A DNA stretch of 64,000 nucleotides from Amphiscolops sp. MND2022 (Eukaryota). Below, piece by piece: positions 13,634 to 52,767 of this stretch (within the stretch, counting starts at the first letter, position 1; each line of letters starts with the position of its first letter). The position numbers were made by a program, and so were the translations under genes. Under the pieces are notes generated by a model, which saw only the letters and a program-made list of their open reading frames with translations, did not search any database and had not been told where the DNA came from. The stretch is taken from assembly GCA_964187785.1 (NCBI GenBank), contig OZ076409.1, forward strand, positions 7,070,001 to 7,134,000, read 5' to 3'.

Positions 13634-15580
13634 ATGACTGTCTGTGAAAATGCACAGAAAGAAAACGAAGACCAAAACAACAATGCGCATGTAAACAACC
13701 TGCAAAACACCCGTCCAACTTCTAACAGCTTTGAAAAAGGATTGGAACCCGGAGATGTGATTTGGGCCAAAGTGTCTCATACCAGTTTTTGGTGGCCGGC
13801 GGTTGTAATATCGGATTCTCAGTCAACGTCAGAAAAGGACAATGCTATCAATGAAATCACCAGCAAGCAAAAGCAGTACCACGTTTCAACATTAGGTGCT
13901 TCTGAAGACCCCCTGGAATTTCACTGGGTCAAACCCACTCAAGTTGTCAAGTACAAGTCGTCTTATGACTACCAGGCGCTCAGTACCAAATCACATAAGC
14001 TTCGCAACGAGAACGAAAGCACAGTGATTCCTAAAGAGTTGCGACAACGTTGGCGACGCGCTAATATTGATGCCATTGAATTGAAAAGCACGTTGGACCT
14101 CAAATGTCGGCTGGAGAAGTTCAAAGGTGGCTTCAAACAACGAAGATACGCTCTTCCCGAGGAGGCCGTGAAGACATTGCATTTCGAAAGGAAAACAGAT
14201 CAAGCGTTGCCATGGAGATGTCGGAAAAACTGTTCCTTGATACGAGCATTGCGCCATGTCCGCAAACGCAAGTACGGAGATTTGAACTCGGACAGTGCCG
14301 ATTCTTCCGCCGACGAGTCGTTGCAATGTCCTTCGCCCTCTGTTCGATCGGAAGTTTCAGATGACTACAGAAACCAAACGAGTGAAACTGAAACGGTTCT
14401 GAGTGACAACAGTTTGCTGGAACGAAAGAAGGCAAAGCGGAAACTCAAGTCACTGTCAACTGATCTCGCGCCTCAAGAAACTACGTCAACGTTGGAAGTG
14501 CTCTCCAAAGATCCGGAAATGCTGGAAAATGAAACCAAGAAAAGAGCCAAGTTTAGATGGCGCGAGCGCTCTGTCCTGGCATCTTACGAGTGGTCTGACT
14601 TCATCAAAGAGCCAAGCTCGTATAAAAATTGCGTCTGTAGGTTATGTGAAACGAAGGGGGACCTATTGTTATGCAAAACATGTGTCAGTTTCTATCATCG
14701 CAGTTGCTATAGTTTGACCTACCCGAAGAAAACAATTGGTGATGCGATTAGTTTTATGTGCCTAGATTGTCAGGAATCCTCAGTAGCTTGTTTTTCATGC
14801 GATGAATACATCACAGATCTCACACACGAAAGCGTCAAGCTCTGTTTAGTCAAATTCTGTCAGAAGGCGTACCACGAAAAATGCATTCAAAAGTATAAAG
14901 TGAAACTAGACAAAGATTTGGAAGATGCTCCAAGTGAGAAGAGTTCTAAGTTTGTTTGTCCAAGGCATGCGTGTGCCTCGTGCTACACCTCAGACCCGCA
15001 CGATTCCAACTTTTCTCAGGGAAAATTCATCAAATGCCACCGATGCCCTCTGGCATACCACACCAATAACGACGACATTTGCATTCCCGCTGGCTCCAAT
15101 ATCCTGTCAAGCACCTATTTGGTTTGCCCATTGCATTTTCCATCCTCAAGTGTCAAAAAAATCAACGTCAATTGGTGTTTCTTTTGTTCCTCGGGAGGCG
15201 ACTTGGTATGTTGCGAGTACTGTCCGGCTGCGTTCCACAGATCCTGTTTGCCTGAGGATGAAGAAATTCCAGACGCAAACCACTGGCTTTGTGAGAACTG
15301 TCGTTGCGGAAGCTTCCCGAAGTACGGAGACACTGTTTGGGCAAAACTTGGCCTCTACCGCTGGTGGCCTGCAAACATTTCCTGGCCTTGGTCTATTCCT
15401 AATTCTGTCATGCGCGCCCCAAACCACATGGGCCAATATGTCGTGGAGTTTTTCGGAACTCACAATTTTTCCTGGTTGCCCGGAGACCGTGTGTTTCTAT
15501 TCGAGGAAGACGACGAAAAGAAAACCAAGGTTGCAACTTCCTTGGGTCTTAACAAAAGCTTCGAAATTGGCATGAAGGAA
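13634..15580 (+). CDS. NSD: NSD/Mes-4-family histone H3K36 methyltransferase, coding segment 1 (PWWP1, PHD fingers, PWWP2)
   Basis: PWWP motifs GDVIWAKVSHTSFWWP and GDTVWAKLGLYRWWP...VEFFGTHNFSW; Cys/His PHD fingers (CRLC..CKTC..YHRSC; NVNWCFFC..GGDLVCCEYCPAAFHRSC). The ATG follows acceptor-like tttcagttag. Homology ends at the MITE starting at 15581; the exact donor is uncertain. Confidence 0.93.
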
Positions 15581-15934
15581 CAGAGTTTTGAATTCGTTGA
15601 TCAGCGATTCAGCGAATTAGCGGCGACGCAGAATTTTTTCAGCGATTTTACTAACGGTTCAAATTAGCGGCAACTGATAGGTTGTCCAAATACTAAATTT
15701 CCTCGAAAAATGGACTGTTTTAAAATGAATTTCCAAAAATTCCAACTCTTACACTTGTAAAACTCACACAAAGTGAGAAATTCTATTCTTTTTTTTCTTG
15801 CAAAAATTGGAATTTTGAAACATACTTGAATTCAAACACTTGATAGTTTGAAAAAAAGTTTTTTAGCGACATAGCGATTTTGATATTAGCGGATTTAGCG
15901 ATTAGCGACAAAAATTAGCGATATCAAAACTCTG
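15581..15934 (+). mobile_element. hAT-like MITE (family CAGAGTTTTGA) inside NSD coding sequence
   Basis: TIRs CAGAGTTTTGA / TCAAAACTCTG; perfect 8-bp TSD TGAAGGAA at 15573-15580 and 15935-15942. Confidence 0.93.
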
Positions 15935-15942
15935 TGAAGGAA

Positions 15943-16618
15943 ATAACTGCTGCTTACAAAGCGCAGTGTTTGCGAAACGAGGAAAAGGTTCTTGAGGTCC
16001 AGAGAAAACAAGACAACGCGTCCAGACCTGCGAGCTACCGATACCTGTCACAAAACAGGCCGGTTCATCCGGTGAAAATCCGGACGACAACTGTCGATGA
16101 ATCATCCGTATGTTCGTGTAAAGCCACCGACCCAAACCCATGCGGACCGGATTCGAATTGCATGAACCGGATAACCTACATAGAATGTCATCCGGCATCG
16201 TGCCCTGCTCTGGATAAATGCCAGAACCAGAGGTTCAGAAATTTCGAGTATGTGAACACGGAAGTCTTCAAGTCCACCAACAGAGGCTGGGGTCTTCGTG
16301 CAATGGTAGATGTCAAAACTGATGTGTTCATTGGCGAGTATTGTGGAGAACTCATAGATCGTGCTGAATGTTCTCGAAGAGTGACCCAACAAAATTTCAG
16401 CCAGAATTACAACTTCTATTTCTGTGAACTGGATAAAGACAGAGTGATTGATGCTTCGAAGAAAGGAAACCATCTGAGATTTTTGAACCACAGCTGTGAG
16501 CCCAATTGCACGACGCAAGTTTGGCTGGTTAATGGCGATTTCAGAGTCGGTGTTTTTACCATTCGCGACATCGGTGCTAACGAAGAGCTAACGTTTAACT
16601 ACAATTTTGAAGCTCTTG
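15943..16618 (+). CDS. NSD: NSD coding segment 2 (end of PWWP2 helix, AWS, SET domain)
   Basis: AWS CSC..CGPDSNCMNR..IECHPASCP..CQNQRF; SET RGWGL, FIGEYCGELI, RFLNHSCEPN, ELTFNY; canonical donor CTTG|GTAAGT at 16619 (phase 1). Start given as the base after the second TSD copy. Confidence 0.93.
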
Positions 16619-16784
16619 GTAAGTTGATGATTAACAATACTACTTTTCGTCCTACTACTAATATATATACAACCAGGCAAACTTAACTTTCACCGGTTTT
16701 TAGTTGTAGCTGTTTGAAATATAGACTAACTGTTATTGTGGATTTTTCTTCTTTTTTAAGGAAAAAAATTGGTTTGGTTGGAGC

Positions 16785-17107
16785 CAGAGTTTTGACACCG
16801 CTGAACGATTTTTTTTCACAATCACAATTCAAATTAGCGGCAACTAAAAGATTGTCCAAACTCAAAATGTCCTCACAAAGTTCCTGGAGTTTCAAAATGA
16901 ATTTCGAAAAATACCAACTGTTCATTTGTAAAAGACCCAGTATAAACTTCTTTCTCGTAAAAACTGAATTAAATTAATATATTATTTTAAAACATACTTG
17001 AAGTCTAAACGTTTAATAGTTTGAAGAAAAAGTTTTTCCGTGAAATTGCGATTTTGAAATTAGTGGTTTAGCGATTAGCGAAAAGAATTAGCGATGTCAA
17101 AACTCTG
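16785..17107 (+). mobile_element. hAT-like MITE, CAGAGTTTTGA family, intronic copy
   Basis: Same TIRs; TSD GTTGGAGC/GTTGAAGC. Confidence 0.9.
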
Positions 17108-19864
17108 GTTGAAGCTGCCAAAATAGGTCTTCACTAGAAATCCCATGAATCTCCGGCAGCCGTGGTATGATTGCCTAGTGATGAGAACATAATTTCTAGA
17201 CAGGTCTTTTTCAGTACTAAGCGCGTGCCATTCAAAAATTATTTTTCAAACCAAGGTAGCTAAGTGTTTCAAGTGCGAGGTTTCTAGACAGGTTATGGGC
17301 TCGACAGTTACAATGTTTAACAAGACGCCCGTCAAGCCAGAAAAATTCTAGGCTCTAGCCCGGGTTCGAACACGCCACCTCCTGTCTGCCAGGCGGACGC
17401 TTTACCAACTGGGCCACGATGACTAAAACATCCACAGACAATGGGGTGACAAAATGGAGATTTGGCAGAAAAAATGTATTGAATATGAGTTCTGTGCTTT
17501 TAACCATTTCATTTTTAAACGACTGAAGAAAATTCAAGTTGGATGTTCATTCCAAACATCAAATTCGTTTATTTTTCCGAAAACGATGATAATTATCATT
17601 AAAGTGTTCATTTTTTTCTTGCTTTTAAGCAATGTCTTTTTTTTTGGGGGGGGGGAGGCGTTTATCGTATAAGGTTGAATTAGTTAGAAGCTTTCAAGTA
17701 TATTCGAATCGGTCATTTGTGTTCATCGTAGGATGAGTGTTATCTAAGAGGTGGAAAACAAGAACTATAATATCGTTTCATGATTACTTTCCCTGGATCA
17801 TTTTCCTATCTAGTCATACTGTTTGCTTTGCTACCTTTGAATTAGATTTCATTCAAAACTCTTTCTCAAACGTTCCACTGAACCTTGGCTCTTTAGGTTT
17901 TCTGTTTTAATCCATTGAATGCTTTTCCTATCAATACCGAACTTGTTACATTGATGGTCAACTCTTGTTTGTTGCTTGTTTCCTGGAAATGGTGGTTTCT
18001 GTGCAAACTGGAGAATTTTTTCCCGTTTGTATTTCATAATATAGGAAAGAGTTTTTTCTCGGCCGGCGTTTTCCTGATTTTGCCTTAGTGTAATTTCATG
18101 CTCAAAAAGTTGAGTTTATTCGACAGAATTTATTGACGATCTAATTAACTAACGCGCACACTTTTTAGTCGGCGCTTTTCGAAGAAAAACGCAGACTATA
18201 GTAGTGACTTCTTTTTTTTAAGACCAACGAACTGACAGATTTTATAAAGAGTTAGCTGAGCTGACTTCACTGCACTAACAGTAACTGCAACGCTAGCTAT
18301 CACTGCTAGCACTTGGCATAGAGGTTAATTAAGCTTTTTGAGGTCTGCCAAGCAGAAGGACGTGGGTTCGAGTCCCGTCCTTGATCAAATTTTTTTGTGC
18401 AGGTTTTTTTCGGCTTTGTGAGATTTTTTCGCAAATTTTTTTAATGTCTCCAAAGGGTCCACCCTTCATTTTTTTTTCTATTTTGCATAAGAATGGATGT
18501 TCAAAACCTCCCAAAGGGCCCCTTTTACAATTTTTCGGCACTATGCGACTTACCGGAGACCAAAAAATTTCGAAAAAAATTCAAAAAAATTCGGATTTTT
18601 AAAAATTTTTCCTCACGCGGGTACTGTAGAAGAGAATACTTGACACTTTGAAGTCCTTTTGCTATTTTTGAGCCTTAGATATGGCGCCGACTTGGGCCGT
18701 TCCCGGCTTGTTTAGTTAACTGTGTCCAAGACTAGTATTTCCGTCCTATCGGCGCCTGCGTCTTATCGAACGGTTTTATAAATTCATGTTAACTAACTCA
18801 GTAACTGATGCGTTCCTACAAACAGTAATTATGAAACATTTGTATGTGAAACACGATTTTATGGACGGAGCATTAATTATGGATGTATCTCTTTTATTAG
18901 TTACTGAGTTTCGAACCAATTTAGAAAACAGCTGTGAACGGTTCCTTGTAAAGGTATCTTTCAATACATTTGAATCCGCCTAATTCGTATTGCTAGGGAC
19001 CGACTAAAATAGTACGAATAATGAGAAATACGAATTAACGGATGATACTACTTTGATAGTCGCGAAATGGGGATCTCTGATACATAGGAATCAAACGAAA
19101 ATCCGAATTATCCGGATACGAATATTCCGGAGTTGACTGTATTGAACATGGTCTCTAATGAGACAATTCGATTTTTGAGTTGACTTTTTTCATTGCAGAT
19201 TTTCCGAAAGCTGACCTTTTTGAGTACTTTAGGCCTTGTGGGGCTGATGAGAGTTTTCGCAATAATTTTGAAGTGCTGATAAGAGTTTTTGCTCGGCACT
19301 GAGCGACATTTTCTCGAAAATTTTCATCTTGTCTTGGCACCCCTTCACTTTTTATTACGTTATCGGCTTGAAAAAAGTGTTTTGCGATCTTGAAGGGTCT
19401 CATTTTGGGTTTTTCGGCACTGTGAGACTTTTTCAGAAAAAAAGTTTTTTCAAAATTTTGTGTTTTTGATGTTTCGAGTTAGGGAAAAAGCGGTTTCCGA
19501 GTCTTATGATTTCTGGTATTTTTCGGCACTGTAAATTGATGAAAAATTTCACTATGGTGTCTCTTTGCATATTCAAAGCTCTTTGCTCTGTTTCAACCTT
19601 GAGCGGGGCGCCGACTCGGGTCGCTCCCGATTTGTTTTAATTTTATTTGGCCTTGTTTTGTTTTGCTGAGATGGTCTCGCGCCACCATGGAGACTGCTTT
19701 TGTGACTACTTTGAGAAGTAATAGGTACTTTATCATTGTGTTGAGAGACTTTAAAGTCGCATTTCCATTATGTGTCTGCTGCATTATCAAAAAACGCTTG
19801 TGTGGCGGCGAACACTGATGCCAAAAACAGACACGATAAATAATAAAGCACTGCATAAAATATA

Positions 19865-20311
19865 CAGTCGTGGCAAAAAGTTCTCGTAGTGAAAATTGAA
19901 TTTGCCAATGACATCAAAAAAGTCGTTATAACTTTTTATTGGGTGAATGAAATAGAATGAAAATTTAAACAGAGATTAATAAAAGCTGGTACTACCACCA
20001 GCCTTAATGACAGATTCTATACAATTCGGCAACGAGGCAAAAAGTTGCTTGAGTTGCTTGAGCGATTCGAGGCATATCAAAAGTTGTATAAAGTTATTGA
20101 GATTGAAATTAATGCGTCCATAATTCAATAACATACTTTCAATGTTATGAAAAATTATTAATACGGAAGTTATAGCGGAAATAAAAAACTGAATGATATT
20201 GCATAGTGTACAGTTTGGTTCTGTGAATTCTCTAACTTCACAATGCCGGAAGCTTTGAGTCAGAAAATCGTTTTCCTTTTGTTTTTTTCCTAGTTTCAAA
20301 TATTCACCCAA
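19865..20311 (-). mobile_element. Tc1-like transposon remnant (far end not defined)
   Basis: TA|CAGTCGTGGCAAAAAGT Tc1-type terminus; the minus strand ends LFASLPNCIESVIKAGGSTSFY*, like a Tc1 transposase C-terminus. Confidence 0.65.
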
Positions 20312-23300
20312 GGTTTTTCTGACTGATAACTATGTTCAAATCATTTGAATGGAGTGGATTTTAGCCTTCTGTTTTTATTCGTGTGATAGATGGTCTAAAT
20401 GTTGCAATAATTGCGTAAATGTCCAAATTTGACTAACTCGTTTTTCTCAATTTTTCTTCTGTAATGATTTCAATTGATAGATAACTACTATTAGCATGAT
20501 TTGCATGGAATCCATGCTCGGGTTTTTTTCAGAAACAATTGCTCGAAAACAGGGATAATTATCGTCTTTTGACCTAATTTAGGATAGTTTTCTCATCGTT
20601 CCGCCCCTTTTGGAGATTCAAGGGGAATCCCGTTTCGCTTTGTTTTTAGTCGGCCATGCCGATAGAAATGCCGATTATAGTCGTTGTTTTTTTCAGACCA
20701 ATGAACTGACATATCTTTATGTTCTGTTAGTTCATTTTCATTATTTGTAGCAAACTTTTTTGGCCTAGCGGTTAACATGATTCTCCGGGTCTGGTGACGG
20801 GGTCTGAGAAGCATGAGTTCGTGGGTTTGAGTCCCGCACTGAAACAATTTTTTTATGCCCGTTAAGGTAGAGAAAAGACTTTTAGGTATTTTGTAGTCGG
20901 CGTTTTCGAAGAAAATGCACAACTCTTACAGTGGCTAGTTTTTTTTCGTCAGTTCAACGCGATCGGTCCACTTTTCTACATTGCACTTTTATCATAAGTA
21001 CTTAGTACTTCATTTTGAACCCATCCAAACCCTCTAACATGAAATACAAAACCATTCCCAAGCAGAAATGTCCTCTTTTCCACTTTTTGACACTATAGGA
21101 CTTCCCTTCTTTTTCGGCTTTGTGGGACTTTCTCGAAAGTTTTTTAATACCTTAAAAGGGTCCCGCCGTCAATTTCTTTTCAAATATTTTGCAACAGAAT
21201 GGATGTTAAAAAAATCTCAAAGAGTCCCCTCTTTCTGATTTTTCGGCACTTTTAGGCTGCTCAAATTTCTCAATTTTCGTGTGCTATTAGGTTTGCTCAA
21301 TACATATCTACCAATATTTTTTTCGGATAATGACTATCCGATTTTTTTTTCGGTACTATGCGACGTTTTTAGTCGGCGCTTTTCCATCCAGTTTTTTTTG
21401 TTTTTTTTTCTTCAGACTACAATCCTCACACTGATTGGTCCACATTTCTTACAATTCTTAGAATCTTGAAATCTTACAAAAAAGCTTGCCAAGTAGTATT
21501 TTAACATCATCTAAGAAACTCAAAGGGACCAAAGGTTACTCCCTTAGAGTACTTTCGGCTGTGAGACTTTTTTTTCGAAAAAAAAATTTTCCCCAAAGGG
21601 TCCCCCTTCAATTTTTTGGGAGTTTTCCGACAGAACGGATGTTGAAAAATCCCAAAGGGTTCCCCCTTTCAGTTTTTTCGGCATTGTGAGGCTTTTTCTC
21701 AAAAAAAATTTTCACCAAAAGTGCCCCTCCAATTTTTTTTATGATTTGCCACAAAATGGATGAAAAATCTCTGGTGTCCCCTCTGGTGCGCCAATTCGGT
21801 TCAACTTCTGGGTTTTTCCGGTACCGTAGAAGAGAATACTTTGACACTTTGAAGTCTTTTTGCTGTTTTTGAGCCTTAGATATGGCGCCGACTTTGGCCG
21901 TTCCCGGCTTGTTCTTATTATTTTCCGCCCATATTTCATATGGGAAAGGAAAATATTTAAATCAAACGGGTTTTTTTTTTTTTTTACAAAATTTGCCAAG
22001 ATTTTATTTATATTTAAATTTAAGGGTGTTACCCATAGAATTCAACCCACATAAATTTAGCTTCGTGCGATATGTATTTGTAGAGATTTTTGAAGTTTTT
22101 TTAAAAAATGACGAAAATGACGAAAATGACCCCTTAATGACAAAATGACCCCGAAAATGACAAAAATTCCCAAATTTCTCATTTTTAAACATTTTTATGC
22201 AATTTTTGCCATTTTTTGAGACACCGCGAATTAGAAAAATGGACAAGATGAATCGAAGCTTTCTTTTCTTCGAACTTCTCAGCGTTTTTATAGTGCATTA
22301 GTTATTCTTGAGCCTCAAATTTATGTAGTTGTAGAACAGTTCGGGGCGGAAAATATCCCGCTCCTCAGCGGGCGTCTTGTTTGTTTTTATCCCCCATTCG
22401 ATTTTTAGGCCTTGTGGGGCTCATGAGAGTTTCGGCACTGAGCAACTTTTTGCTCGAAAAAAAATTCATTTGGTCTCAGGGTACCCCCTTAATTGTTATC
22501 ACGTTTCCGACTTGAAAAAAAGTGTTTTGCGATCTTGAAGACACTATATCAGGAAAAAATCGTTTTTTTTTCAAAAATATTGTATTTTTTGATGTTTCGA
22601 GTTAAGGAAAAAGCGATTCTCGAGACTTATGGTATCATTTCTGTACTTTGCAACACTGTAAATTTGATGGAAAATTTCACACTATGTATATCCACTAGCG
22701 CCCCTTTGTATATTCAAAACACTTTTCTCTGTTTGAACCTTGAGCGGGGCGCCGACTTGGGGCGCTTCCGGGTTGTTTTAGTTGTCGCTTCCATTGATAG
22801 CAGTCTCGTCTGCGCCGATAGAAAGTGTCTGTAAAATAGAAGTTTTGATCTGACAAAGTGTCTGTAAAATAGAAGTTTTGATCTGACATGTGACATTTTC
22901 GAAAGTTGGGAGCTTTTAAAACGAAAATTTCCGCTTTACGAGTTTTCTGCCCTGATTTTGACACTATCCACTTTCTTTCATTTGTCAATTTTCCGAAGAG
23001 TTTTGGATCTTCCTAGCGATTTTTTGTTCTATTCTTGTCCTTTGTCTGGGATGATACTTTACAGGTAATTGCATTTGCTTTCATTGCCACGCGTAGGTGG
23101 GCGTGACTGAATTACGTCATTGGAGATGTCATTCATTTTTAATCCATCCACTAACGGAAGCTGTCCCAAAATTTGTTTAGGGTTTTTGTCTGATGAACTT
23201 CCTAATCCAAAACTATTTTGGGTTTTTGCCTGATGAATTTCCTAATCATTCGTTCAAACAGAACTGTTACATTTAAGATGAAATTCCGAGTAAAACTTTT

Positions 23301-26300
23301 TTTTACTTTTTTGGTCGGTGCGTCTATGAATTTTTGTCGTCACTTTCTTTTAGTCCCCTAGTAGTGACTAAAAGTTATACAAAGTTCTATTATTCACCTA
23401 AGATCTAAAAAGCCTAAGAACGTCTGAAGTCGGCGCTATATCTACTCTGTATAACTTTGTATAACTTCTATATACTTTGTATAACTTAGTAAGGCTCAAA
23501 AAGCGCAAAACATTTTTTTTGGAAAAAAAACTTGAAATTTTTGAATTTTTTTCTTTCGAAAAATGTCGCATAGTGCCGAAAAATGTAAAAGGTGGGACCC
23601 TTTTGGATTTATTAACATACATTCTGTTGCAAAATATCAAAGAACGAAAGGGGGACCCTTTAGGCACGCCCGGTTTTGTAGGTTTCCTTGAAAAAGTAAA
23701 AAATGAAAGGGGACACTTTGGACTAAGTTTGCCTTGGCCGGACTTGGCCTTAGGTGGTTTCAGGAATTTTTCTAAAAAGTGGACCGATCGGTGTGAGGAT
23801 TGTAGACTGAAGAAAAAAAGTTCACTGCTATAGTCGGGCATTTTTCCTTAAAAGGAAAATGCGCCAACTAAAAATACAAATTTTTCAGATATTTCTCAAA
23901 ACAACGTAAGCATATTTTTAAAAAGCCTTCTGATTCGCGATCGGAGCACCGACTAATGGCCCTTCCGGCTTGTTTCACTTATTTCAATCAAATCAGCTAT
24001 TATGTCATATAAGATAGCTCAAACTATAGGTTTTTGGGGACTTTGTTTTTTACCCATCTCCAATTTATTTTGGTCCAATGAGATAATTGATGTCAACATA
24101 GTTCTGCATTGATTGACAGTTGAAAGTTACAAATTACGGATGTTATAACGGATAAATTTTGCGTTCGAATAGGGGCCTTATACAATTCTGACTTGTTTGA
24201 GACGTGAAAATTTGCTCTTTTGAAGAACAATTTTAAAAAATTAGGGTGATTTTTGCTGTGAGTGTCAAAACAGCTGTAGATACAATCCTCTAAGTATTTT
24301 CAACCGTATCAAATGCTTTCATTCGTGCAAGAATTTTTCAAGAATAATTTTTTCGTGTTTGGGGGAGGAATAAAAACAATGTTTATCTAGGGGGCGAGTA
24401 GAAAACGTATTCCGGTTTTCGACACAATATCCGCAAAGTATCATAATTTCAACTTGTTTCTTATCGACATTTTTAGTCGGCACTTCATGAAGTGAAACAC
24501 GACTATTATAGTGACTCTTCTTTTTCAATCCACACGTACTGACCAAAATAGTTCTAAAAGTTCTACGAAATTTTATGGTATCAAGTTGAACCATTTGGCC
24601 TAACGAACTGAACCAAAAAGGTTTTTTTTCCGCGTAACATACAGTACCGGGTGAGACTAAAGGGTACCCTTTCAGTTTTTTTCGGCATTGTGAGACATTT
24701 TTCTGAAAAAAATCCCTAAAGGGTCCCCCTTTTAGCGCACCAATTCGGTCGAACAGTAAAAGAAAACTTGACACTTTGAAGTCCTTTTGGTATTTTCGAG
24801 CCTTAGATATGGCGCCGACTTTTGCCGTTCCCGGCTTGTTACTTACTCCAAACTGTTAATTTGGGCCGTTGAAAATTTACAAACTGACATCCAAATTTCC
24901 GAAATCAGCGTGATTTCACATTTTTGATTCCAGCTGGCGAAATCCAACAATTAGACAATGAAAAGTAACAAAATAGACATTCAAGATTAGCTTACGCTAT
25001 ATAATATTTTACAGAACAGGTAAAAGGTAGAAAGAATGATAATGCTGCCGCAAACTTTCTGTATGCTAGCAGTGGTCCCCCAGGGATTAGTAAAATTGAA
25101 TGTCGAATTGTGAATTTCGGATGTATTTCTAGAAAATTTAATCTTTCATCTGATTAGTTCAGGAATTTTGAATGTCGTTTCGCAAATTTTCAACGTCCTA
25201 CGCTGTAATTATTACTAATTGACGACTGATTACTGGGAAAATAGTAATGACAGAAGTATTTTAAATTTTAGAAATCAATTCTGTATATGATGCTTCAAGT
25301 TGATAGATTTTTTAATTGGAGTTCCGTTGTACATATAAATTAATAGGAAGTAATTTATATTACTGAATTTGATTTTTCAATTGTGATGGATCTTTTGCCG
25401 CAATGAGCTTGCTCCCACTGTTTGATGGGCTTCAAACTTCTATAGAGTCTTAATTCGAAGTAGCGTTTTTGAGGCTTCGAGCGAGCGAAGCGAAGCGACG
25501 AAGTCTCTATTGTTCCGCGTTTACTAGCGTTTTGGTTTTTTTTCGCGTGACATACCCTCTGCATTTGTATTAATTGAAGGCTATTTTCTCAGAGCCTATT
25601 TTTCCGCGACCATCCAAACTTTCCAAAAAGAAACGCAACTTGATGCTCTTTCTAACCGTGTAAAAACTTTCCGAAAATTTTCCACCGGCGCGATTTTATT
25701 AGCTTCGAAAGCGCGAAATTTTCGAAAATTTTTAGGGTTTTTGTCGATTTTGCTATTTTTCTTTTCGCAAACCACAGCGAATTGGCCCGATGTAGGTACT
25801 AACCGACGTAAAACGATGTTTTCTTTAATTTGGTGAAAGTTTTTTTATCCTAGAATTATTGGGCTTTGCGAAAATGACCATTAAAAATAGGAAAAATTTT
25901 CGGTTTTTTTGCGTAAAAAATTTCCCAACCTATTTTCAAGTAGCAATCAGTTCTAATCCAAGCAGTGGTGTTTCTACTCGACGACAGGTCTGCTTAGCTG
26001 CCCAAAGTTAGAAATTGGAAAGTCACAACATTTACGTCGGACAGATAGAGACAAAAAAGTTTTCAAATTTTTTGAATTTTTGATAAATTGCTCTCTTTAT
26101 TCAATTTTGTAAAAGTTTTGGCCTATTTTCTCGGAGCCTAATACTTCGAGACCATCCAAAAACTCAACAAATTGTTGGAACTGAATTTGTTGGTGAAGAT
26201 TTAAATGTTGTTGGATTTTCGGGCAGTTCATTGTATATTATACAAATTGTGCTTTACTACGAATCTTGAAATAAATGAATATTTGATCTTTCAATTTTTA

Positions 26301-27536
26301 ATTATTCATTTTCCAAACTAATCTTAGGAAGGAGTGAAATAGACGAAGTTACCGGATCGGTCTTGTAAAAATGCATAGATTGCGGTCTGATTACCCCTAG
26401 TAACCCTCCTACTGTCTTATTTGCACGGCTGTTGTTAAAAATGCTGACTTCATCCTTGGAAGGTTTTTATTTATTTATACTGCTAGTAGAAAATGTAAAA
26501 ATGCTCGAAGACCTATCGGCAATGTACATTGAATCATATACTCCATAATTGCTCCTTGATTTGCTTTGTCTCATGCCTGTAAAATTTTCGGTGAATAGTT
26601 TTTTTGTCCATTTTTGATGTCGGAAACCAAAGTTTTTTTCAGACCTCTCGATGTATGGGTTTTCGAGAGTGAGATCATATTGGACCACTGGAGTACATAC
26701 TCACCGTTAGTTATTGATGATGTGGTTGTTTGAAGCGTAAAACCGCGAAATTTCCGTTCTTAACGTATTCTATCCAGTGAATATCTGCACAGAAGGTATT
26801 ATGCATTACCGCAATATTCCTGAGAGATTTGATGTCATATGCAACGATTAAATCAAGACAACACTAAGTTATATTCACACCTCGCTGTGCAATGATATTC
26901 AACTACGTTGTATTGAAAACAAAAATGATTTCGGATCTTTTCGTGATTTTGCCCCATTCGCAAATTTTAACAGGTTATTCATCCTCTGGTGCCCACTGAT
27001 GCTGGAAGGTTGTTTGATGCACAATTCAGCTAATTTTTAGAACTGAAAGTATACTTGCTAGTGATGGCACGTATCAACCGTCCTATTGATAACTAGGGCA
27101 GCCCTTCCTTTTATATAGTGGTAAAGGCCGAAAAAGTTATGCTTCATAGGATTAATACCCGCAATTCTTTTCAATTTCATTGTATTTTGAGCATTCTCGT
27201 GCCGTATATAACCTTAGCTATACGTCATAACTAATAACTTGGTAATATGGTTCAAATGCACATGATGATAGTCAATTATGGCTGCGGGACCTGTCGCTCG
27301 AAGCCGTGCGCAAATTCCTTTGCGCCTATGTTTTTGTTTAATTAACTTCCGAGGACTTAAATGACAAGCTGCTTTTTAGTTCGTTTTTGCCGACCTCCCC
27401 ATCTGTATTTTATTATAATAAAAAATAATGAAAAAAAATGAAAAGAATGGATTTTACTGGAGGAGAACTGTTGAAACTCTTGAACGTTTTCCGTCTCTAA
27501 TTTGACCTCTAGTTTTGATATTCATGGTCAAAAGTG

Positions 27537-27850
27537 AATACTGTCTCAATCTTCCTGATGAAAAGGACGAAACTGGCGCTGGCGATATCAGTGAAACTTC
27601 GCATTCGAAACAGGGTTCGCATGTTTAAAACATGCCGTGTTTTAAACGCGTTTTAAACATGTTTTAAACAGAGTTTTAAACATGACAAAAACCTTCATTT
27701 CTTTCAATTGTTTGTAGTCGGCGCTTTTTGCTTTTAAGGAAAAATGCCCGACTCTTACAGTGACCTTTTTTCTTCAGACTACAGACCTCACACTGATCGG
27801 TCCACTTTTTAAAGAAACTACTGAAACCACTAAGGCCAAGTCCGGCCAAT
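27537..27850 (+). repeat. Local duplicate of NSD exon end plus adjoining MITE/HINE (copy of 29583-29899)
   Basis: Near-identical sequence from AATACTGTCTCAATCTTCC to GGCCAAGTCCGGCCAAT. Confidence 0.92.
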
Positions 27851-28452
27851 TATTTTCAGACCTGAATCTTACTTTAATTGAAAGTAACTTTAATGGAACA
27901 ATGATGACAGTTGAAAGAAAAATGAGAAACTTCCTGCATATATTTTCAAGGGTTGAGAAACAAGCCGGGAACGGCATAAGTCGGCGCCATATCTAAGGCT
28001 CAAAAATAGCTAAAGGACTTCAAAGTCAAGTATTCTTTTACAGTACCCAAAAAACCCAAAAGTTGAAGCGAATTAGCGCGCCGGGGGCCCGCCAGCGGGC
28101 CCCTGGCGCGCTAAAAGGGGAACCCTTTCGGATTTTTTAACATCATTTGTTGCAAAACATATTCCAGAAAAATGTCTCACAATGCCGAAAAAACTGAAAG
28201 GGTGACCTTTAGTCTCGCCCGGTACTCTATGTTAAGCGGAAAAACAGGAAAAACCTTTTCGGTTCAGTTCGCTAGGCCAAATGGTTCAATTTGGCACCAT
28301 AAAATTTCGTAGAACTTTGTAGAACTATTTTGGTCAGTTCGTGTGGATTGAAAAAAAGAGTCACTATAATAGTCGCGTTTCTTCGAAACTTCATGAAGGG
28401 CCGACTAAAAAAAACAGGACGGAGTCCCGCATTTTGAGTTTTTTTGTTTCAG

Positions 28453-28755
28453 GTGAAACGAAGATCCGTTGTTTTTGTGGTGCCGAGAGCTGTTCGGGAT
28501 ACATCGGCAGCAAATCAAAATCCACTGCTGACGCTTCCGCTCCTGTTGCTCAACAGCGATCAAACCCGAGAGGCAGAAAACCGAAGCTGAAATCGTCCAG
28601 CATCACGAACAGTAGTTCAAACGCCTCGTCTGCTTCGTCAACCAATGAGAGTGAAGATGTTTGTTTCCGATGTGACGAGGGCGGAGAATTGTTGATGTGC
28701 AGTAAGCCGAAGTGCTCCAAAGCTTACCATTTGGAGTGTGTCGAAATGAAGGAAG
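28453..28755 (+). CDS. NSD: NSD exon (post-SET, PHD5 N-part)
   Basis: Acceptor tttttgtttcag| with phase 1 matching the 16619 donor; CFCGAESCSGYIG post-SET; EDVCFRCDEGGELLMC..CSKAYHLEC; proposed GC donor AAG|GCGAGT at 28756. Confidence 0.9.
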
Positions 28756-28774
28756 GCGAGTGTGTCGAAATGAA

Positions 28775-29418
28775 GGACCATGTCATCTATCCCCCCCAGG
28801 TACACCTTGTTGGGAATCCCCCCCATCCAACACGAAAGCACATTTTGTTCTTGAATAAAAATATTTCACTAATAAGAGAATATCATATGAATGTATATAC
28901 AGTCAAACTCGGATAAAAGAAACTCATTGGGCGGTTAGAAAAGTGTTTTTTATTCATAGTTCCTTTTATCAGTTGTCATATTAACGTACGTAGAAAGTTT
29001 GTCTTGCATAAAAAAGGAGTAGTGAAAACAATGCTTATATCCGAATGTTTCTTTTATCCGTGTTTCTTTTATCCGAGTTCGACTGTACTTAGAGGATTGT
29101 CTCTACAACTGTTTGGACACTTCATGTAAAAAATTACCATAATTTTTTGATATCATTGTCCAAAATAGCAGAAATTCACGTTTGGAACAAGCGAAAATCG
29201 TATAAAAAGCCCCTATTTCAGCGCAAATTTTATCCGTTATAAAATCTAATGAGCAACTTTTAATTGACAGTCAATGTAATGGATAGGATTATGTCGACAT
29301 CAAGTATTTTATTGGACCAAATTTTCAACGCAAGCGGTGTCGACATAATGGTATTTGAACCTTCTGTCTTATTTCCCCCGCCTCAGTTAGGGGAGGGGAG
29401 AAATAGGTGACATGGTCC
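28775..29418. mobile_element. GG..CC-terminated MITE (GGACCATGT family) forming most of an NSD intron
   Basis: TIRs GGACCATGTCATCTAT / ATAGGTGACATGGTCC (15/16 match); internal sequence matches the reverse complement of 52315-52767. Confidence 0.9.
28900..29085. mobile_element. TA-TSD Tc1/mariner-pogo-like MITE nested in the 28775-29418 element
   Basis: TA|CAGTCAAACTCGGATAAA ... TTTATCCGAGTTCGACTG|TA; the empty site is visible in the 52315-52767 copy. Confidence 0.9.
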
Positions 29419-29420
29419 AG

Positions 29421-29660
29421 GCGAGGTTCCCAGAGGTCGATGGGACTGTCCCTGGCACTATTGCGACATTTGCGGGGCCAAATCTGTGTACCATTGCAGT
29501 AGCTGTTACAACTCAGCATGCGATCAACATTACAAGGGTCTCATTATTGTCAGCGATCTGTCAACAGGGGTGCTACAATGCAAATACTGTCTCAATCTTC
29601 CTGATGAAAAGGACGAAACTGGCGCTGCCGATATCAGTGAAACTTCGCATTCGAAACAGG
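29421..29660 (+). CDS. NSD: NSD exon (PHD5 C-part and C5HCH)
   Basis: After ccag| the frame reads (G)EVPRGRWDCPWHYCDIC..YHCSSCYNSACDQH, the NSD PHD5-C5HCH signature; proposed donor CAGG|GTTCGC at 29661. Confidence 0.88.
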
Positions 29661-30114
29661 GTTCGCATGTTTAGTACATGCCGTGTTTTAAACGCGTTTT
29701 AAACATGTTTTAAACAGAGTTTTAAACATGACAAAAACCTTCATTTCTTTCTTCAATTGTTTTTAGTCGGCGCGTTTTCCTTTTAAGGAAAAATGCCCGA
29801 CTCTTACAGTGACCTTTTTTCTTCAGACTACAGACCTCACACTGATCGGTCCACTTTTTAGAGAAACTCCTGAAACTGATAAGGCCAAGTCCGGCCAATG
29901 CAAACTTAGTGCAAAGGGTCCACCCTTTCATTTTTTACTTTTTAAAGGTAACCTACAAAACCGGAAAAACTAAAGGGTCGATTTTTTCGGCACTATGCGA
30001 CATTTTCCGAAAGAAAAAATATTTTTAAAAATTTGAAAAAAAGTTTTGCGCGTTTTGAGCCTTAGATATAGCGCCGACTTTAGACGTTCTCGTCTTGTTT
30101 TATTCCGAACCCTG
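29657..30114. mobile_element. hAT-like MITE (CAGGGTTCG family) inside NSD coding sequence, with nested HINE at about 29762-30099
   Basis: TIRs CAGGGTTCG / CGAACCCTG; perfect 8-bp TSD ATTCGAAA at 29649-29656 and 30115-30122. Confidence 0.9.
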
Positions 30115-30123
30115 ATTCGAAAG

Positions 30124-30437
30124 ATGGCAACTTGGACGTTGATGAAATTGCTAAGAAGTGTTTGAACAGTTTGTCCGAGAGTCTCATCAATATGCTACAC
30201 TTGAACGTGAACTTGAACGATTCTAAAGAGGCTGGTGCTACTGAAAAGAAGGCTAAAGAGTTTTGCATCGATTCAGACTCCGAACCTGATTGCGACAATG
30301 CTCCAGAGACGGAAAATGAGTCACCCGCCGAGAAAACATTGGTCGAAGCTGCTGCTGCAAAATCAGCCGGAACTGAAAATCTACGCTCCGAGGAAACTGA
30401 GCTGAAAGCAGAAACTTTATTGAGCCCAGAGTTTTGA
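30124..30437 (+). CDS. NSD: NSD probable terminal coding exon (acidic tail)
   Basis: In frame with the previous exon once the 29657-30114 MITE and one TSD copy are removed (..SHSK/DGNLDVDEIAKK..); acceptor AAAG|AT phase 1; stop TGA 30435-30437. Confidence 0.72.
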
Positions 30438-30737
30438 CACCGCTAATTAGCGAATTAGCGGTCTTGCAGAATTTTTTCCTGGAAAAAAATTTGAAAATTC
30501 CTCGGAAAATACACGGAGTTTCAAAGTGAATTTCATAACATTCCAATTCTTACCTCTGCAAAACCCACACAGTATGAAAAATTTTGGTCTTTTTTTCTTG
30601 CAAAAACTGAATGAAGTCATTTTAAACATTCTTGAATTAAACGTTTACTAGCTTGAAGAAAAAGATTTTCAGCGAAATAGCGATTTTGAAATTAGCGGTT
30701 TAGCGATTAGCGAAAAAAATTAGCGATGTCAAAACTG
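30427..30737 (+). mobile_element. hAT-like MITE, CAGAGTTTTGA family, overlapping the NSD stop codon
   Basis: TIRs CAGAGTTTTGAC / GTCAAAACTG; TSD ATTGAGCC/ATTGAACC. Confidence 0.88.
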
Positions 30738-34678: not shown

Positions 34679-34856
34679 CAAGTAGCAGCCCTCACCCCGG
34701 AACAGATAGCAGACTTCAGAGTGGCCTTCGACACTTTCGACGTTGATGGATCCGGGTCCATAGACGCAGACGAGCTCAAGACAGTCATGAGTTCCATGGG
34801 CAAAGAGATGTCCAAGAAGGAAATCGAGGAACTCATCAAAAACGTCGACGAAGACG
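34679..34856 (+). CDS. Calmodulin-like EF-hand protein, exon (EF1, start of EF2)
   Basis: ttgttcag| then QVAALTPEQIADFRVAFDTFDVDGSGSIDADELKTVMSSMG..IKNVDEDG; donor G|GTTAGA phase 1. Confidence 0.9.
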
Positions 34857-34866
34857 GTTAGAAATA

Positions 34867-35526
34867 CAGTCGATCTCGGATAAACAAGACGAGAACGTCT
34901 AAAGTCGGCGCTATATCTAAGGCTCAAAAAGCGCAAAACATTTTTTTGGGAAAAAAACTTGAAATTTTCGAAAATTTTTCTCTTTCGGAAAATGTCGCAC
35001 AGTGCCGAAAAAAGTAAAAGGGGGGACCATTTTTGATTTATAAACATGCATTCTGTTGCAAAATAAAAAACTCAAAGGGGGGACCCTTTGGGACATTAAA
35101 AAATTTTCGAAAAAAAATCGCTCAATGCCGAAAAAAATCAAAAGGGGGACCCTTTAGTCTCGGCCGGTTTTGTAGGTTACGATAAAAATGGACTAACTGA
35201 AAGGGGGGACCCTTTGCACTATCTTAAATGCGCTGCCAGTATATTAGTAGTACTGTAATTAGTAGTTGAACGTTAATTTTAACGTTCGTCGCTTCGAGTC
35301 TGTCTTAAAAAAACGAGTCACTGTAATAGTCGGGCTCCTTTATTAATAAAAGCGCCGACTAAAAAACACGGGTAAAAGAAACATTCGGATATAAGAAACG
35401 TTTTCACTTCTCCGCTTTTATGCAAGACAAACTTTCTACGTTTATAGGACAACTGATAAAAGAAACTATGGATAAAAGAAACTCTTTTCTTACCGCCCTA
35501 TGGGTTTTTTAATCCGAGTTTGACTG
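34867..35526. mobile_element. Same TA-TSD MITE family, interrupted by a HINE (about 34883-35366)
   Basis: TA|CAGTCGATCTCGGATAAA ... ATCCGAGTTTGACTG|TA. Confidence 0.85.
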
Positions 35527-38364
35527 TACTATTTGATCTATCTAAACATCTAAACACCAGAGTTTTGACGCCGCTAATTAGCGGCCGCACAGAATATTTC
35601 AGCGATTCTGTTGGTGATTCAAATTAACGGCAACTAATAGTTGTCCAAATTCGATTTTTTTTCGATATGAAAAAAAATATTTTCGAAATTGTGAAACTTT
35701 TTTGACAATTTTTCAAATCCAAAAGGCCGCATTTATACGAGTTGCGTCGACCAGAAGGACTTTTTCAGGCTTGTTCTATCTGTCTTGAGATTCCCAAGGT
35801 TACAAAAATCACAACTCTTGCATAATTCTCACAAAAATTTTTGTAAGATCTTGTAAGAAAATAGATTTTTAGAATCTAATTCTTGCAAAAATCCTGCAAG
35901 ATTTGCATTTTTCTGCTCAGAAGGTTACAAAAAATGCATAAATTTTACAAATTTCATGCAAAAATTGCATTTCCTGCCTCGAAAAAAAAATTTAACGGCT
36001 GCGAAAAAAATTTATGGCTACAGCTTCATTTATTTCTCAACACTCGTATTAGAATGTTTATCGCTGAACGACGGCAACATGTTTCATCTTACAGAATTCT
36101 ATCATAATTCGAGCAAATTGTCTTTTATGGAAAGTTTATTATAAAGGACGCTAATAAAACCTTTTGAGCTGTCGGATATAATAGAAAAGAAGTCGATTTT
36201 TGATTACAATGAATCAGACTCGATGGAACATATAACATTTCATGTCTCCTCTAATTGGCTAATTTCAAATTTCAAACATCTGCTAGCAAAAAATCTTCCA
36301 CGAATTTACAGCGTCTTTCAGAAATTATGCACCAAGTTTAACTTCAATTATTCCAATAAGTACTATTCAGAACGTAACTATTTTTCAACAGATTTTCAAC
36401 AATATATGGAACTTTTGTTTTTGATACATTAATAGTTTATTCATCTACATTAGGTGCTGGAAATGACCTCGTTTCTGATCTTCACACAGCTGTGATCGCT
36501 TCCGAATATTGATAAGTTGGATCATGACCGGAAAGAGCAAGTGTGAAAAATTGAAATTTGCACTCAACAACAAAATTGAGCGAAACAAAAAACATCAATC
36601 AAAAGTTCCAATGTTTCGCTATAAAACCTTAAAAGACATTCTTGTTACATTTGACCAATTTCTCACAATTTGAAGATAGGTTTGACACATAACTTCTGAA
36701 AGACCCTGTAATTGAACTGGCAACAACTCCCAATAGGCAGCGTAGCATATTCAGTAATTTGTTCGCATTTTTGCATATGCTGGCTTTAACTGTGAGAGAA
36801 TCGAGAACTTTGATATTTAGCGAAACGTTTGTTTTACACTGAAAAATCATTTCAATTTTTTTCATTTTATTCATTTTTCTTCATTCGCAAAACTTTATTC
36901 AAAGAGCCTCTTTGAATAAAGTTTTGTGAATGAAGAAGAATTCGAGCCGAATTCTGAGCTGAACAAAGCTCCACAATGTTTATTCGATTTTCGAATAGCC
37001 AGCCTGACTGATAGTAGAACTCAGAGAATAAATGTGAATTTATTTCCTACACGGTGTCAGGACATTTCGCCCGAAGACAGTTCGCCAAAAGCGGATTTTA
37101 CGCCCAATAATTATGGTGCGGTAAAATACCTCTAGTGCTCTGAACGCAGGAGCGAAGCGTAACGACAACCCATTCCCGGTCAAGTGACTGGTTTCGACGA
37201 AATCGACCTGAAGTCGTACCCGGGGAGTTTTCGAGAAAATCGAAAAAAGTCCAAAAATTAAACATGGTCATTTTTAATCTGCGCTTCATGAAGTGAAACG
37301 CGACTATAATAGTAACTTTTTTCAATCCATACGAACTGACCAAAATAGTTTTACTAAAAGTTCTACGAAATTTCCAGCGACCAAATTATACCTTTTGGCA
37401 CAGGGAGCTGAACTATAATAACTGTCCCTTTTTTATCGTAACATACGAAACCGACGAGACTTAAGGGTCCCCCTTTCGATTTTTTTTGGCCCTGCTAGAC
37501 TTGTTTTCGAAATTTTTTAAATGTCTCCATAGGGTCCCACTTTCATTTTTTTGATATTTTGCAGCAGAATGGATGTTAAAAGTCCCAAAGGGTTTCCCCT
37601 TTCAGCGCGCCAGTTCGGTCCTGTGGGTTTATCGGCTAGTGTGGAAGAGAAGACCCGAGACTTTGCGATTTTTGAGCCTTAGGTATGGCGCGCAGACTTA
37701 TGCTTTTCCCGGTTTGTTCAATATATTGGGCGTAATGTCATAGAACCTCCTTACACTTTTGTACTTCTTGAGATGCTCTCAGCGAAGTATTTTTTTGCAA
37801 CCCGGTGAATGGAGAAATTTAGTTCTGTTATTTCATCAGATCTGACCTAGTGCTCGAATTAGTTCTCCTCGGTAGTTTTTGTTCAGACTAGAATATTGTG
37901 AAAACTTTTTGGACTTTCGCAAATAATGCGAGCGGACTCCTATGTTTAGCGTTCTTTCATTGACTCGTACAGACAAAAGCGCCCCAATCAAAAGCGCCCA
38001 TTTTACACAGTCATAAGCGCCCCAGTCAAAAGCGCCCCAATGCAAAACGTCCTACTAATTTTGTAGTTGATTTCACCGCCTCTTCTTAAACCTAATTGGA
38101 GGTGTTTAAAGACAACATTAACCCTCTGTATTCACACCTTAAAAATCTCAATTGGAAACGATTTAAACTGCTAATTTTGGCATTTCTGAAGAAACTATGT
38201 CATTTTGTTAATGAATCAGTTTGTCAATGCACTGGTTTGAGATGAAATACTGATCATTATTTAATTGGAGTGAGGACGTAATATTGATGGTTGAAAAGAG
38301 TGAGCAAATCCTCTGTAGTCTTTGACTCTGGGCGCTTTTGTATGGTAACCTATTGACTATTTAG

Positions 38365-38506
38365 GATCGGGTTGCATCGAGTTTGAGGAGTTCTTGGAAA
38401 TGATGGTTCTGCAAATGCAAGACACGTCAGAGGAAGAGGAGATTGAGCGCATGTTCCAGGTGTTCGACAAAGATGACGACAAGTTTGTCTGTGTCGGAGA
38501 ACTCAA
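38365..38506 (+). CDS. Calmodulin-like protein, middle exon (EF2-linker-EF3); absent from the ORF track
   Basis: tatttag| (G)SGCIEFEEFLEMMVLQMQDTSEEEEIERMFQVFDKDDDKFVCVGEL(K) |GTGAGC; phases 1 and 2 fit the neighbouring exons. Confidence 0.9.
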
Positions 38507-39831
38507 GTGAGCAACCCACTCTACTCTCAGACACTTTTTACATGCACTTTTGAAGCACGCAGGCTAATTTTTCATGAAACATACAAAATTCAGGGACTCT
38601 GCATGCAAAATTCATGTAAAACTTTCCTGCAACTTGGAAAACCTTGGCAGCATTTTTCTGTGCTTTGAAAGGAGTTTAGGCAGCCTGAAGAATATTAAAA
38701 TATTCATGCAGGCCATTAATTTTTAGTCGGCGCTTTTCGAAGAAAAACGCAGACTATAGTAGTGACTTTTTTTTTAAGACCAACGAACTGACAGATTTTA
38801 TAAATTTTATAAGTTGGCACTAAACCGGCACTAACTAAACTGTGTCACACTACTTCACTGCCACTTGGCCACTACGGCTTTTTCGAGGTCTGACAAGCAG
38901 AATGACATGGGTTCGAGTCCCGCCATGACCAAAATTTTTTCAAAAAATCTGATTTTTCAAAAAAAATCGGATTTCAAAAAAATTTCAAAAAAATCGGATT
39001 TTTTTCAATTTTTCCTCAAACGGGTACTGTAGAAGAGAATACTTGACACTTTGAAGTACTTTTGTTATTTTTGAGCCTTAGATATGGCGCCGACTTGGGC
39101 CGTTCCCGGCTTGTTTGCATTGAAAAACGGCATTTGTCGAAGCCTGAATCGCACTGATTCATGTAGAAAAACAGATCCTGTTTCGCAGTAAACCTCCTGA
39201 AAAAGTAATGCTGAATCGAAAACGTCCATTTTAGCGACGTTTCAGCCTTCACTTTCTTAATCTTGAAAAAAATGCTCAGAATCTAAAAACTAGTCCTTAT
39301 TCACTAGTGAATATTTTCCTCCCAGTGCTTTTGTATGCAATCTGTATGTTGCTTGCAAATTGCCATTTTTGCGTGAAACACAAAGATGTTGAAATATGAC
39401 GTATGCTATCGGAAGTGTTCAAAATAATGACCAAGTCGTGTTTTGTGACGTCATTCAAAACGCCCGCCTTCAAACACAAGCTGCACTTTCTGAACTAAGT
39501 CCGCCCTTTGGAATAAACAACAGACAGGACAGGGCGGCTTCTTTCATGTTCTCGGTGGAGAATTTCTCTCGGTAGGTGTTTTTCATGTAATCAACAAATG
39601 CATTTTTTCGCCTCTGGTTCTTTTTAAATCTCAGAGAATGCCCCGAGAGAATAAAATTTGGCATTGAGTCCAAAAGGAAGGTCTTTTCCTGACAAATCTC
39701 AACCTACAATATCCCTCATGCTGAAAAAAAGGAGATTCCTCATGCGAGAACAGAAGTCTCGACTTGGAGACCTCAAGAGAGAAAAACAAGCAATAGTGTT
39801 TCTTTCAAGTATGAGACAACTTTATTGCAAC

Positions 39832-40084
39832 CAGGTTTTGACATCGCTATTTTTCGCTAAACCGCTAATTTCAAAATATATATTTCGCTGAAATACGTTT
39901 CTTCAAACTATTAAACGTTCGACTTCAAGTGTGTTTTAAAAGAACGAAGTTTTGCGAGAAAAAGGACTAGAATTTTTCTTACTTGGTGGGTTTTACAAGG
40001 GTAAGAGTTGGAAATACAAAGATAAGAAAAATTCTGCGCGGCCGCTAATTCGTTAAATCGCCGCTTAGCGGTGTCAAAACTCTG
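39832..40084 (-). mobile_element. hAT-like MITE, CAGAGTTTTGA family (partial copies also near 2640-2846, 35559, 40258)
   Basis: TIRs present; TSD ATTGCAAC/TTTGCAAC. Confidence 0.8.
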
Positions 40085-41507: not shown

Positions 41508-41634
41508 ACTGATCTTCTTGAAGATGGGTGAAGATGTGAGCGACGAAGAGATAGAACAGATGATCCGAGTGGCCGACAAGGATGGAGACGGCAAACTCGG
41601 CTGGCAAGACTTCCACGACATCATGATGTCATGA
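41508..41634 (+). CDS. Calmodulin-like protein, last coding exon (EF4)
   Basis: ttttgttgcag| (K)LIFLKMGEDVSDEEIEQMIRVADKDGDGKLGWQDFHDIMMS*; the three exons total 447 nt (148 codons plus stop). Confidence 0.9.
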
Positions 41635-52314: not shown

Positions 52315-52767
52315 GGACCATGTGTCGTATCCCCCCCCAAGCGGCCGCGGGGGGGGGGGGATAAGACACAAGGTTCAAATACCATTATGTCGACATCGTT
52401 TGCGTTGAAATCAAAAATAATTGATGTCGACATCCTATCCATTACATTGACTGTCAGTTAAAAATTGCTCATCAGATTTTATAGCGGACAATATTTGCGC
52501 TGAGACAAGGGCCTTTTTATACGATTTTAGCTTGTTCCAAGCGTGAATTTCTGCTATTTTGGGCAATAATATCCAAAAATTATGGTACGTTTTTTGCCTG
52601 CAGTGTCCAAACAGTTGTAGAGACAATCCTCTAAGTATTTACGTTCATATGATATTCTCTTATTAGTGAAATATTTTTTATTCAAGAACAAAATGTGCTT
52701 TCGTGTTGGGGGGGGGGGGGGTAATTAGCAACAAGGTGTACCTGGGGGAAAATAGAACACATGGTCC
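52315..52767. mobile_element. GGACCATGT-family MITE, intergenic copy (possibly Merlin-like)
   Basis: TIRs GGACCATGTGT / ACACATGGTCC; 8-bp TSD GTTTTGCG/GTTTAGCG; partial copies near 24040-24360 and 41180-41337. Superfamily inferred only from GG termini and the 8-bp TSD. Confidence 0.85.

Follow-up and report, generated by a model that had tools for sequence, protein, structure and literature searches.

A non-autonomous Merlin transposon that inserted into the PHD5 exon of an NSD-type H3K36 methyltransferase gene of the acoel Amphiscolops sp. MND2022 is probably spliced out as a GC-AG intron, whereby the two copies of the target duplication would serve as donor and acceptor and the reading frame would be restored exactly. 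The window analyzed here, the whole stretch of 64,000 nt from contig OZ076409.1 (positions 7,070,001 to 7,134,000), carries the gene on the forward strand with PWWP, PHD1-4, PWWP, AWS-SET, post-SET, PHD5 and C5HCH domains in the usual order, as assigned by Pfam and ortholog alignment. Its best relative is the ortholog XP_075262920.1 of Convolutriloba macropyga (P0004), and two further NSD paralogs exist in this genome (G000). Protein searches returned no full-length annotated protein of the gene. Removal of three elements and one old intron leaves an open frame of 1,158 codons that is colinear with P0004. The layout is as follows:

13634..15577, forward strand: exon 1 (PWWP1, PHD1-4, PWWP2), from Pfam and alignment to ortholog P0004; an additional 5′ exon is possible
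15578..15939, forward strand: predicted intron 1, with a 354-bp CAG...CTG element (15581-15934) and a perfect 8-bp duplication (15573-15580 / 15935-15942)
15940..16618, forward strand: exon 2 (AWS, SET), from Pfam and ortholog alignment
16619..28452, forward strand: intron 2, ordinary GT-AG, at a position common to the ortholog and one paralog
28453..28755, forward strand: exon 3 (post-SET, linker, start of PHD5), from Pfam and alignment
28756..29420, forward strand: predicted GC-AG intron 3, 665 nt, splicing predicted from sequence
29421..29660, forward strand: exon 4 (end of PHD5, C5HCH domain), from Pfam and alignment
29661..30123, forward strand: predicted intron 4, with a 458-bp CAG...CTG element (29657-30114) and a perfect 8-bp duplication (29649-29656 / 30115-30122)
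30124..30437, forward strand: exon 5 (C-terminal tail), with the stop codon inside a fourth element (30427-30737)

Elsewhere in the window lies a calmodulin-like EF-hand gene (34680-41634), with exons at approximately 34680-34855, 38400-38500 and 41508-41634 and GT and AG at the intron ends that were seen. The features that bear on intron 3 are these:

28734..28753, forward strand: exon stretch that is the template of the filler, first copy of a 20-nt repeat
28754..28760, forward strand: 5′ copy of the target duplication (7 of 8 bases, from sequence comparison), holding the predicted donor AG|GC (28755|28756)
28761..28774, forward strand: 14-nt filler, a copy of 28737-28750 that stands in place of the eighth duplication base and supplies the T at donor position +6
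28775-29418, no strand assigned: non-autonomous Merlin element with GG...CC ends, composite, 644 bp, identified by its ends, its duplication and its transposase-bearing partners
28900-29085, no strand assigned: nested second element, 186 bp, with a TA duplication, inside the Merlin element
29419..29426, forward strand: 3′ copy of the 8-bp target duplication, forming with the final CC of the element the predicted acceptor CCAG| (29420|29421)
52315-52767, reverse strand: sister Merlin copy, 453 bp, without the nested element, with an 8-bp duplication containing 1 mismatch

A first-pass annotation made from the bare sequence had pointed out a 20-nt duplication with copies 24 nt apart, and this repeat is exact (28734-28753 and 28758-28777) and far beyond chance. 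It consists of the 14-nt filler, 3 nt that the filler's template has in common with the target duplication and 3 nt in common with the terminal repeat of the element, which gives the filler a 3-nt microhomology at each end. The annotation had also held that the 8-bp target site duplication, which it correctly saw at the sister copy, is missing at intron 3. Directly at the left end of the element there is no copy (8 of 8 positions mismatch), but 7 of the 8 bases are found 14 nt upstream, moved off the element by the filler. On comparison of the bases the duplication is displaced rather than missing, and the AG|GC at both predicted intron ends derives from it. The 7-mer at 29419-29425, noted as a repetition of 28754-28760, is the Merlin target duplication itself; the proposal that both splice sites stem from duplicated AG|GC exon sequence therefore holds, without any separate exon duplication. 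The same displacement of the duplication by filler occurs in a non-coding copy of the Merlin family (L142), and the filler at 28761-28774 fits templated end joining. The 665 nt of intron 3 are fully accounted for by 5 nt of the 5′ duplication, 14 nt of filler, 644 nt of the element and 2 nt of the 3′ duplication, with no remainder. Cutting out 28756-29420 in silico, with the GC donor and the CCAG acceptor as originally proposed, yields the in-frame peptide that had been claimed.

The terminal inverted repeats of the element are located at 28775-28797 and 29396-29418, with arms of 23 nt that are 83% complementary. The first reading as a MITE was right about the inverted repeats and the extent but missed the nested 186-bp element, which may be Tc1/mariner-like. 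Members of the family are approximately 455 bp long; a first look gave 4863 candidates in this genome, of which 40 were scored, and none of these 40 covers the nested part, so the nested element was likely inserted later. Among the 39 two-ended copies obtained from 57 loci (18 loci had none), 19 are flanked by perfect 8-bp duplications, 11 by duplications with one mismatch and 2 by duplications with two mismatches, while 7 show none; thus 32 of 39 lie within two mismatches of 8 bp. The element itself encodes no transposase. Of 20 loci matching PF12762 (DDE_Tnp_IS1595), 8 are elements 1.15-1.3 kb long that have these same ends and 8-bp duplications. Merlin elements are defined, in the part of PMC8101967 drawn on here, by terminal GG, duplications of 8-9 bp and an IS1595-type transposase, with a published range of terminal repeats that begins at 24 bp. 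By its GG ends, 8-bp duplication and same-ended partners with IS1595-type transposase the element is a non-autonomous Merlin; it differs from the Merlin descriptions in that part of PMC8101967 in being non-autonomous, composite and a predicted intron. This copy departs from the column majority of the family (33 copies from 45 loci) at 18 of 449 sites, with 6 gaps. Several of the 1.15-1.3 kb Merlin elements (L176-L180, L188, L193 and L195) have perfect duplications, some with open frames of ~310 codons, and the family may have been active recently.

The first-pass annotation had singled out an ordinary intron at this position in relatives as one observation that would refute its reading, and the relatives lack such an intron. 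A genomic frame of the closer relative (P0134, 71% identical) runs straight through the site of intron 3, as do the genomic frame P0006 of C. macropyga and both paralogs. Across the junction, the predicted spliced product aligns with P0134 without a gap, with 51 of 62 residues identical and all Cys, His and Trp residues retained. The Merlin element is also present on another contig that we read as the second allele (P0133). There, the exon 4 protein is identical to that of the window, and 2 of 48 element codons differ, both of these amino-acid differences being in the terminal repeat and one of them removing a stop. Searches for an exon-3 product matching this second allele found none.

To judge the splice sites, we derived a profile for this genome from its CCT, adaptin and cullin genes, using 47 ordinary introns placed by script from the DNA alone. 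In this census 56 gaps were examined, skipping those with missing exons; 55 were called and 5 doubtful ones dropped, which left the 47 ordinary introns and 3 transposon introns. Another 7 introns of the Sec1 family were judged by eye (6 ordinary, 1 ambiguous). Ordinary donors in this genome carry A at -2 and G at -1 in 39 of 47 cases each, are loose at +3 and begin with GC in 3 of 47. The GC-AG introns in CCT7 (L106-L107) and adaptin (L123-L124) genes look ordinary; this frequency of 3/47 exceeds that in vertebrates, where GC-AG introns make up roughly 1%. With this profile, the pair 28755|29421 ranks first among 418 site pairs. The donor scores 8.3 bits, above 53% of ordinary donors, and AAG|GCGAGT pairs with the genome's U1 at 9 of 11 positions (2 of them as G-U), the best of 7 donors tested. 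The acceptor is weaker, with 5.1 bits, above 11% of ordinary acceptors; it has the CAG and lacks a U-rich tract, and a rival acceptor 13 nt downstream scores 4.2 bits and is out of frame. Because the acceptor has no such tract and the rival is so close, splicing may be leaky. We also noticed at least 21 U1 snRNA genes above the cut-off (L196-L207), of two or more sequence types. The 5′ end is the usual one in 7 of 12 copies and a variant in 5 of 12, and an altered U1 was rejected as the cause of the host's tolerance on account of the 7 usual copies.

The sequence of events that we propose would begin with a Merlin insertion into the PHD5 exon that duplicated an 8-mer target beginning with AG-GC. 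At insertion, or upon a later break at the left end, repair would have slipped 24 nt backwards at a 3-nt microhomology, used 14 nt of the exon as template and rejoined via the 3-nt microhomology in the terminal repeat, as in templated end joining. The U2 spliceosome would then use AAG|GCGAGT and CCAG|, and the second element would have landed inside the new intron afterwards. The host may tolerate such insertions because its donors depend largely on AG|G at the exon side, a motif that a duplication of this kind copies to both ends.

The first-pass annotation had gone further and proposed that the rearrangement rescued splicing, which implies that the plain insertion was spliced too poorly and that the 14-nt filler was selected for improving the donor through the T at +6. 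GC donors usually need strong flanks, and the filler does lift the donor from 6.6 to 8.3 bits and extends the pairing with U1 to positions +6 to +8. Yet at 6.6 bits the donor would still outscore 34% of ordinary donors and fall within their range, and a GC donor of 3.0 bits is found in the CCT8 gene described below. Moreover, the non-coding copy L142 with its filler and the 7 of 39 family copies without a clean duplication indicate that such junctions arise without selection. Selection for a rescued donor is therefore unlikely; by the scores, the filler strengthens the predicted donor and is not needed for it to be spliced.

A second alternative is that the intron is poorly spliced, so that the protein ends after SET or the transcripts are degraded, and that the PHD5-C5HCH end is decaying under cover of the paralogs. 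The low rank of the acceptor, the existence of two NSD paralogs and the accumulation of four insertions within one coding sequence all agree with this. We simulated neutral decay as the chance of acquiring no stop or frameshift, either at the element's measured rates or at more cautious ones, given that G/C runs, and one 2-nt gap made by excising the nested element, push the measured indel rate too high. Exon 4 alone would stay open with a chance of 0.047 at measured and 0.42 at cautious rates, which makes it a weak test of selection, and exons 4 and 5 together with a chance of 0.0005 and 0.17, respectively. Everything downstream of the intron-1 element stayed open in 0 of 3000 runs at measured rates and with a chance of 0.007 at cautious rates. 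That element differs from its family majority (29 copies) at 49 of 351 sites. The gene clearly survived the insertion of the intron-1 element, and a whole-gene pseudogene was rejected since the frame is open despite this 14%-diverged element; the evidence that the gene survived the Merlin insertion is fair, not strong. Against decay of the C-terminal end, exons 4 and 5 are open with every metal ligand retained, the exon 4 protein is the same in both alleles whereas 2 of 48 codons differ in the neighboring element, this element has diverged by 4% from the majority of its family and is old enough to have taken a nested insertion, and weaker duplication-derived sites occur in the single-copy CCT8 gene. 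We therefore consider poor splicing quite improbable. The two paralogs together with the share of transposon-made introns, 3 of 4 here versus 3 of 57 elsewhere, fit relaxed selection on the gene.

Splicing of the element by its own internal sites (GT at 28799|28800 and CAG at 29386), which would leave 26 extra codons in the PHD5 loop, is very unlikely. These two sites are in frame with each other, the second allele (P0133) has no in-frame stop in the 3′ terminal repeat, and one paralog has a long loop at this very place. However, the product of the window allele meets a stop in the terminal repeat, and the acceptor at 29386 scores 0.1 bits because tracts in this genome are U/G-rich rather than C-rich; for this stop and this weak acceptor the internal sites were rejected. 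In addition, the loop measures 10 residues in 86 of the 89 homologues that span it. The GT donor at 28800 reaches 6.3 bits and is out of frame with the acceptor at 29421. Finally, in many fragments of animal NSD genes, intron-like sequence gives way to coding sequence at the Gly that precedes K/R-W-x-C-P-W-H (among 147 proteins, 58 are without the upstream half, and most of these show it). This point corresponds to 29435|29436 here, 15 nt from the acceptor. An ancestral intron that slid upstream over these 15 nt and took up transposons afterwards is scarcely credible and largely refuted, since such an intron is missing in this genome and its relatives, the two acoel relatives as well as the two paralogs are continuous across both positions, and duplication, filler and element explain all 665 nt.

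A Merlin-derived intron 3 would not stand alone. Beyond what the first annotation had seen, the coding sequence of this NSD gene contains another three TIR elements flanked by 8-bp duplications. Those of introns 1 and 4 have perfect duplications; intron 1 is missing in P0002 and intron 4 in both P0134 and P0006. Precise removal of the element from intron 1 requires a GA donor of -1.2 bits, below all ordinary sites, which makes it a candidate GA-AG intron. The alternative GT donor at 15530 has 6.1 bits and loses 16 conserved codons of the PWWP2 helix that match the ortholog. Intron 4 would use a GT donor inside the element and an acceptor of -7.7 bits, again below all ordinary sites, and add one codon. 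The fourth element (30427-30737), of the same family as the intron-1 element, has an 8-bp duplication with 1 mismatch and lies directly before the stop codon; read-through there alters just the last few residues. A separate duplicate of 314 bp (95.6%) links 27537-27850 in intron 2 with 29583-29899, where it covers the last part of exon 4 and the left portion of the intron-4 element, and it is also present on the contig of the second allele (P0229, P0283).

Among the 57 introns of housekeeping genes, 3 are of the duplication type (in CCT8, CCT4 and a CCT5 duplicate), made by transposon families other than Merlin. The CCT8 intron (L101, L170; contig C8 of G000, ~57287.7-57288.1 kb) consists of a 369-bp MITE plus one copy of the duplication, and its GC donor of 3.0 bits is the best open and the only precise solution. 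The CCT4 intron (L100:3052-3637, contig C13) stems from the same MITE family; its donor copy reads GT and its acceptor copy GC, which suggests an improvement from GC to GT or the reverse change in the exon. In the CCT5 pair (L111:1166-6856, contig C3; L113, contig C1), the two copies are 98-99% alike; the L113 copy is intronless, and L111 contains a TIR element of 5.7 kb, flanked by an 8-bp duplication, with the frame intact to its left and right. CCT4 and CCT8, of which we found one copy each, encode subunits that are essential in eukaryotes, so that sites as weak as theirs very likely function in this genome. Three introns (NSD intron 1, CCT4 and CCT8) come from the CAG...CTG family, whose elements are presumably hAT-like. 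Nevertheless, only 1 of 12 AGGC-flanked CAG...CTG copies lies within an exon (that in CCT8), and no further Merlin copy was found in a recognizable coding exon in 57 loci, 28 of which had been chosen for AGG by the end, as judged on two-ended copies by frame length and by eye; neither family is a dedicated introner. A blind scan for TIRs plus duplications gave many false pairs in the repeat-rich DNA, and of its output we used only what a gene model supported. Introns in CCT6 (L109), a cullin (L130) and a Sec1-family gene (L219:1250-1673) are possibly older ones of transposon origin, as they show a direct repeat of 9 nt spanning the intron ends, an acceptor without a tract, or short inverted repeats close to the ends.

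The route to the intron is a known mechanism. In gain at a proto-splice site, as presented in the part of PMC3443670 drawn on here, a transposon inserts into an exonic AG|G and the duplication provides donor and acceptor, leaving the coding sequence unchanged. The predicted intron 3 resembles this in its AG|G target and in drawing both sites from the duplication, and departs from the textbook AGGT in that the target is AGGC, which gives a GC-AG intron, and in that a 14-nt templated filler separates the 5′ copy from the element. The table of cases in PMC3443670 lists rice, fly, Oikopleura and maize, and acoels are not in it. Introners are likewise non-autonomous TIR transposons whose target duplications accompany their becoming introns (Gozashti et al. 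2022, PMC9860276; 2025, PMC12130899). In some families, among them that of Florenciella (legend of Fig. 2E in PMC9860276), donor and acceptor both derive from the insertion site, and one-codon additions are described, as predicted here for NSD intron 4. Introners as characterized in these sections form families of many similar introns, whereas the Merlin family is almost wholly non-exonic in our sample and the new introns are single and from different families. Tolerant spliceosomes with common GC donors have been described, in the portion of PMC11282704 considered, for the MITE-derived introns of Fritillaria borealis and the GC-AG introners of dinoflagellates. Our host would similarly tolerate the weak or unusual ends of its predicted transposon introns, but, unlike those systems, its introns are mostly GT-AG, acceptors stay AG, U1 is usual in 7 of 12 copies and transposon introns are a small minority. 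Our literature searches, which covered openly accessible papers, found no report of such introns from Merlin or in acoels; in PMC12130899, neither 'Merlin' nor acoel names occur in the main text, and acoel names do not occur in supplements 1-12 of 14.

Few animal intron gains show source, empty site and mechanism together, and at this locus all three can be read. It would add Merlin to the known sources, in a genome where other transposons seem to have taken the same route in genes expected to be essential. The interest lies less in one junction than in the recurrence across transposon families within an animal genome. We tentatively suggest that the acoel lineage is now gaining introns from several unrelated, non-introner transposon families by means of a spliceosome that reads AG|G. 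If this were true, any 8-bp duplication holding AG|G would suffice for a functional intron, essential genes included, whether the donor is GT, GC or even GA and although the acceptor lacks a tract, and approximately 1 intron in 20 in housekeeping genes as well as 3 of 4 in the NSD gene would have arisen in this way. This genome could show how weak newborn splice sites may be and whether GC donors turn into GT, as CCT4 suggests, and it raises the question of whether the tolerance of the host, rather than special elements, drives intron gain.
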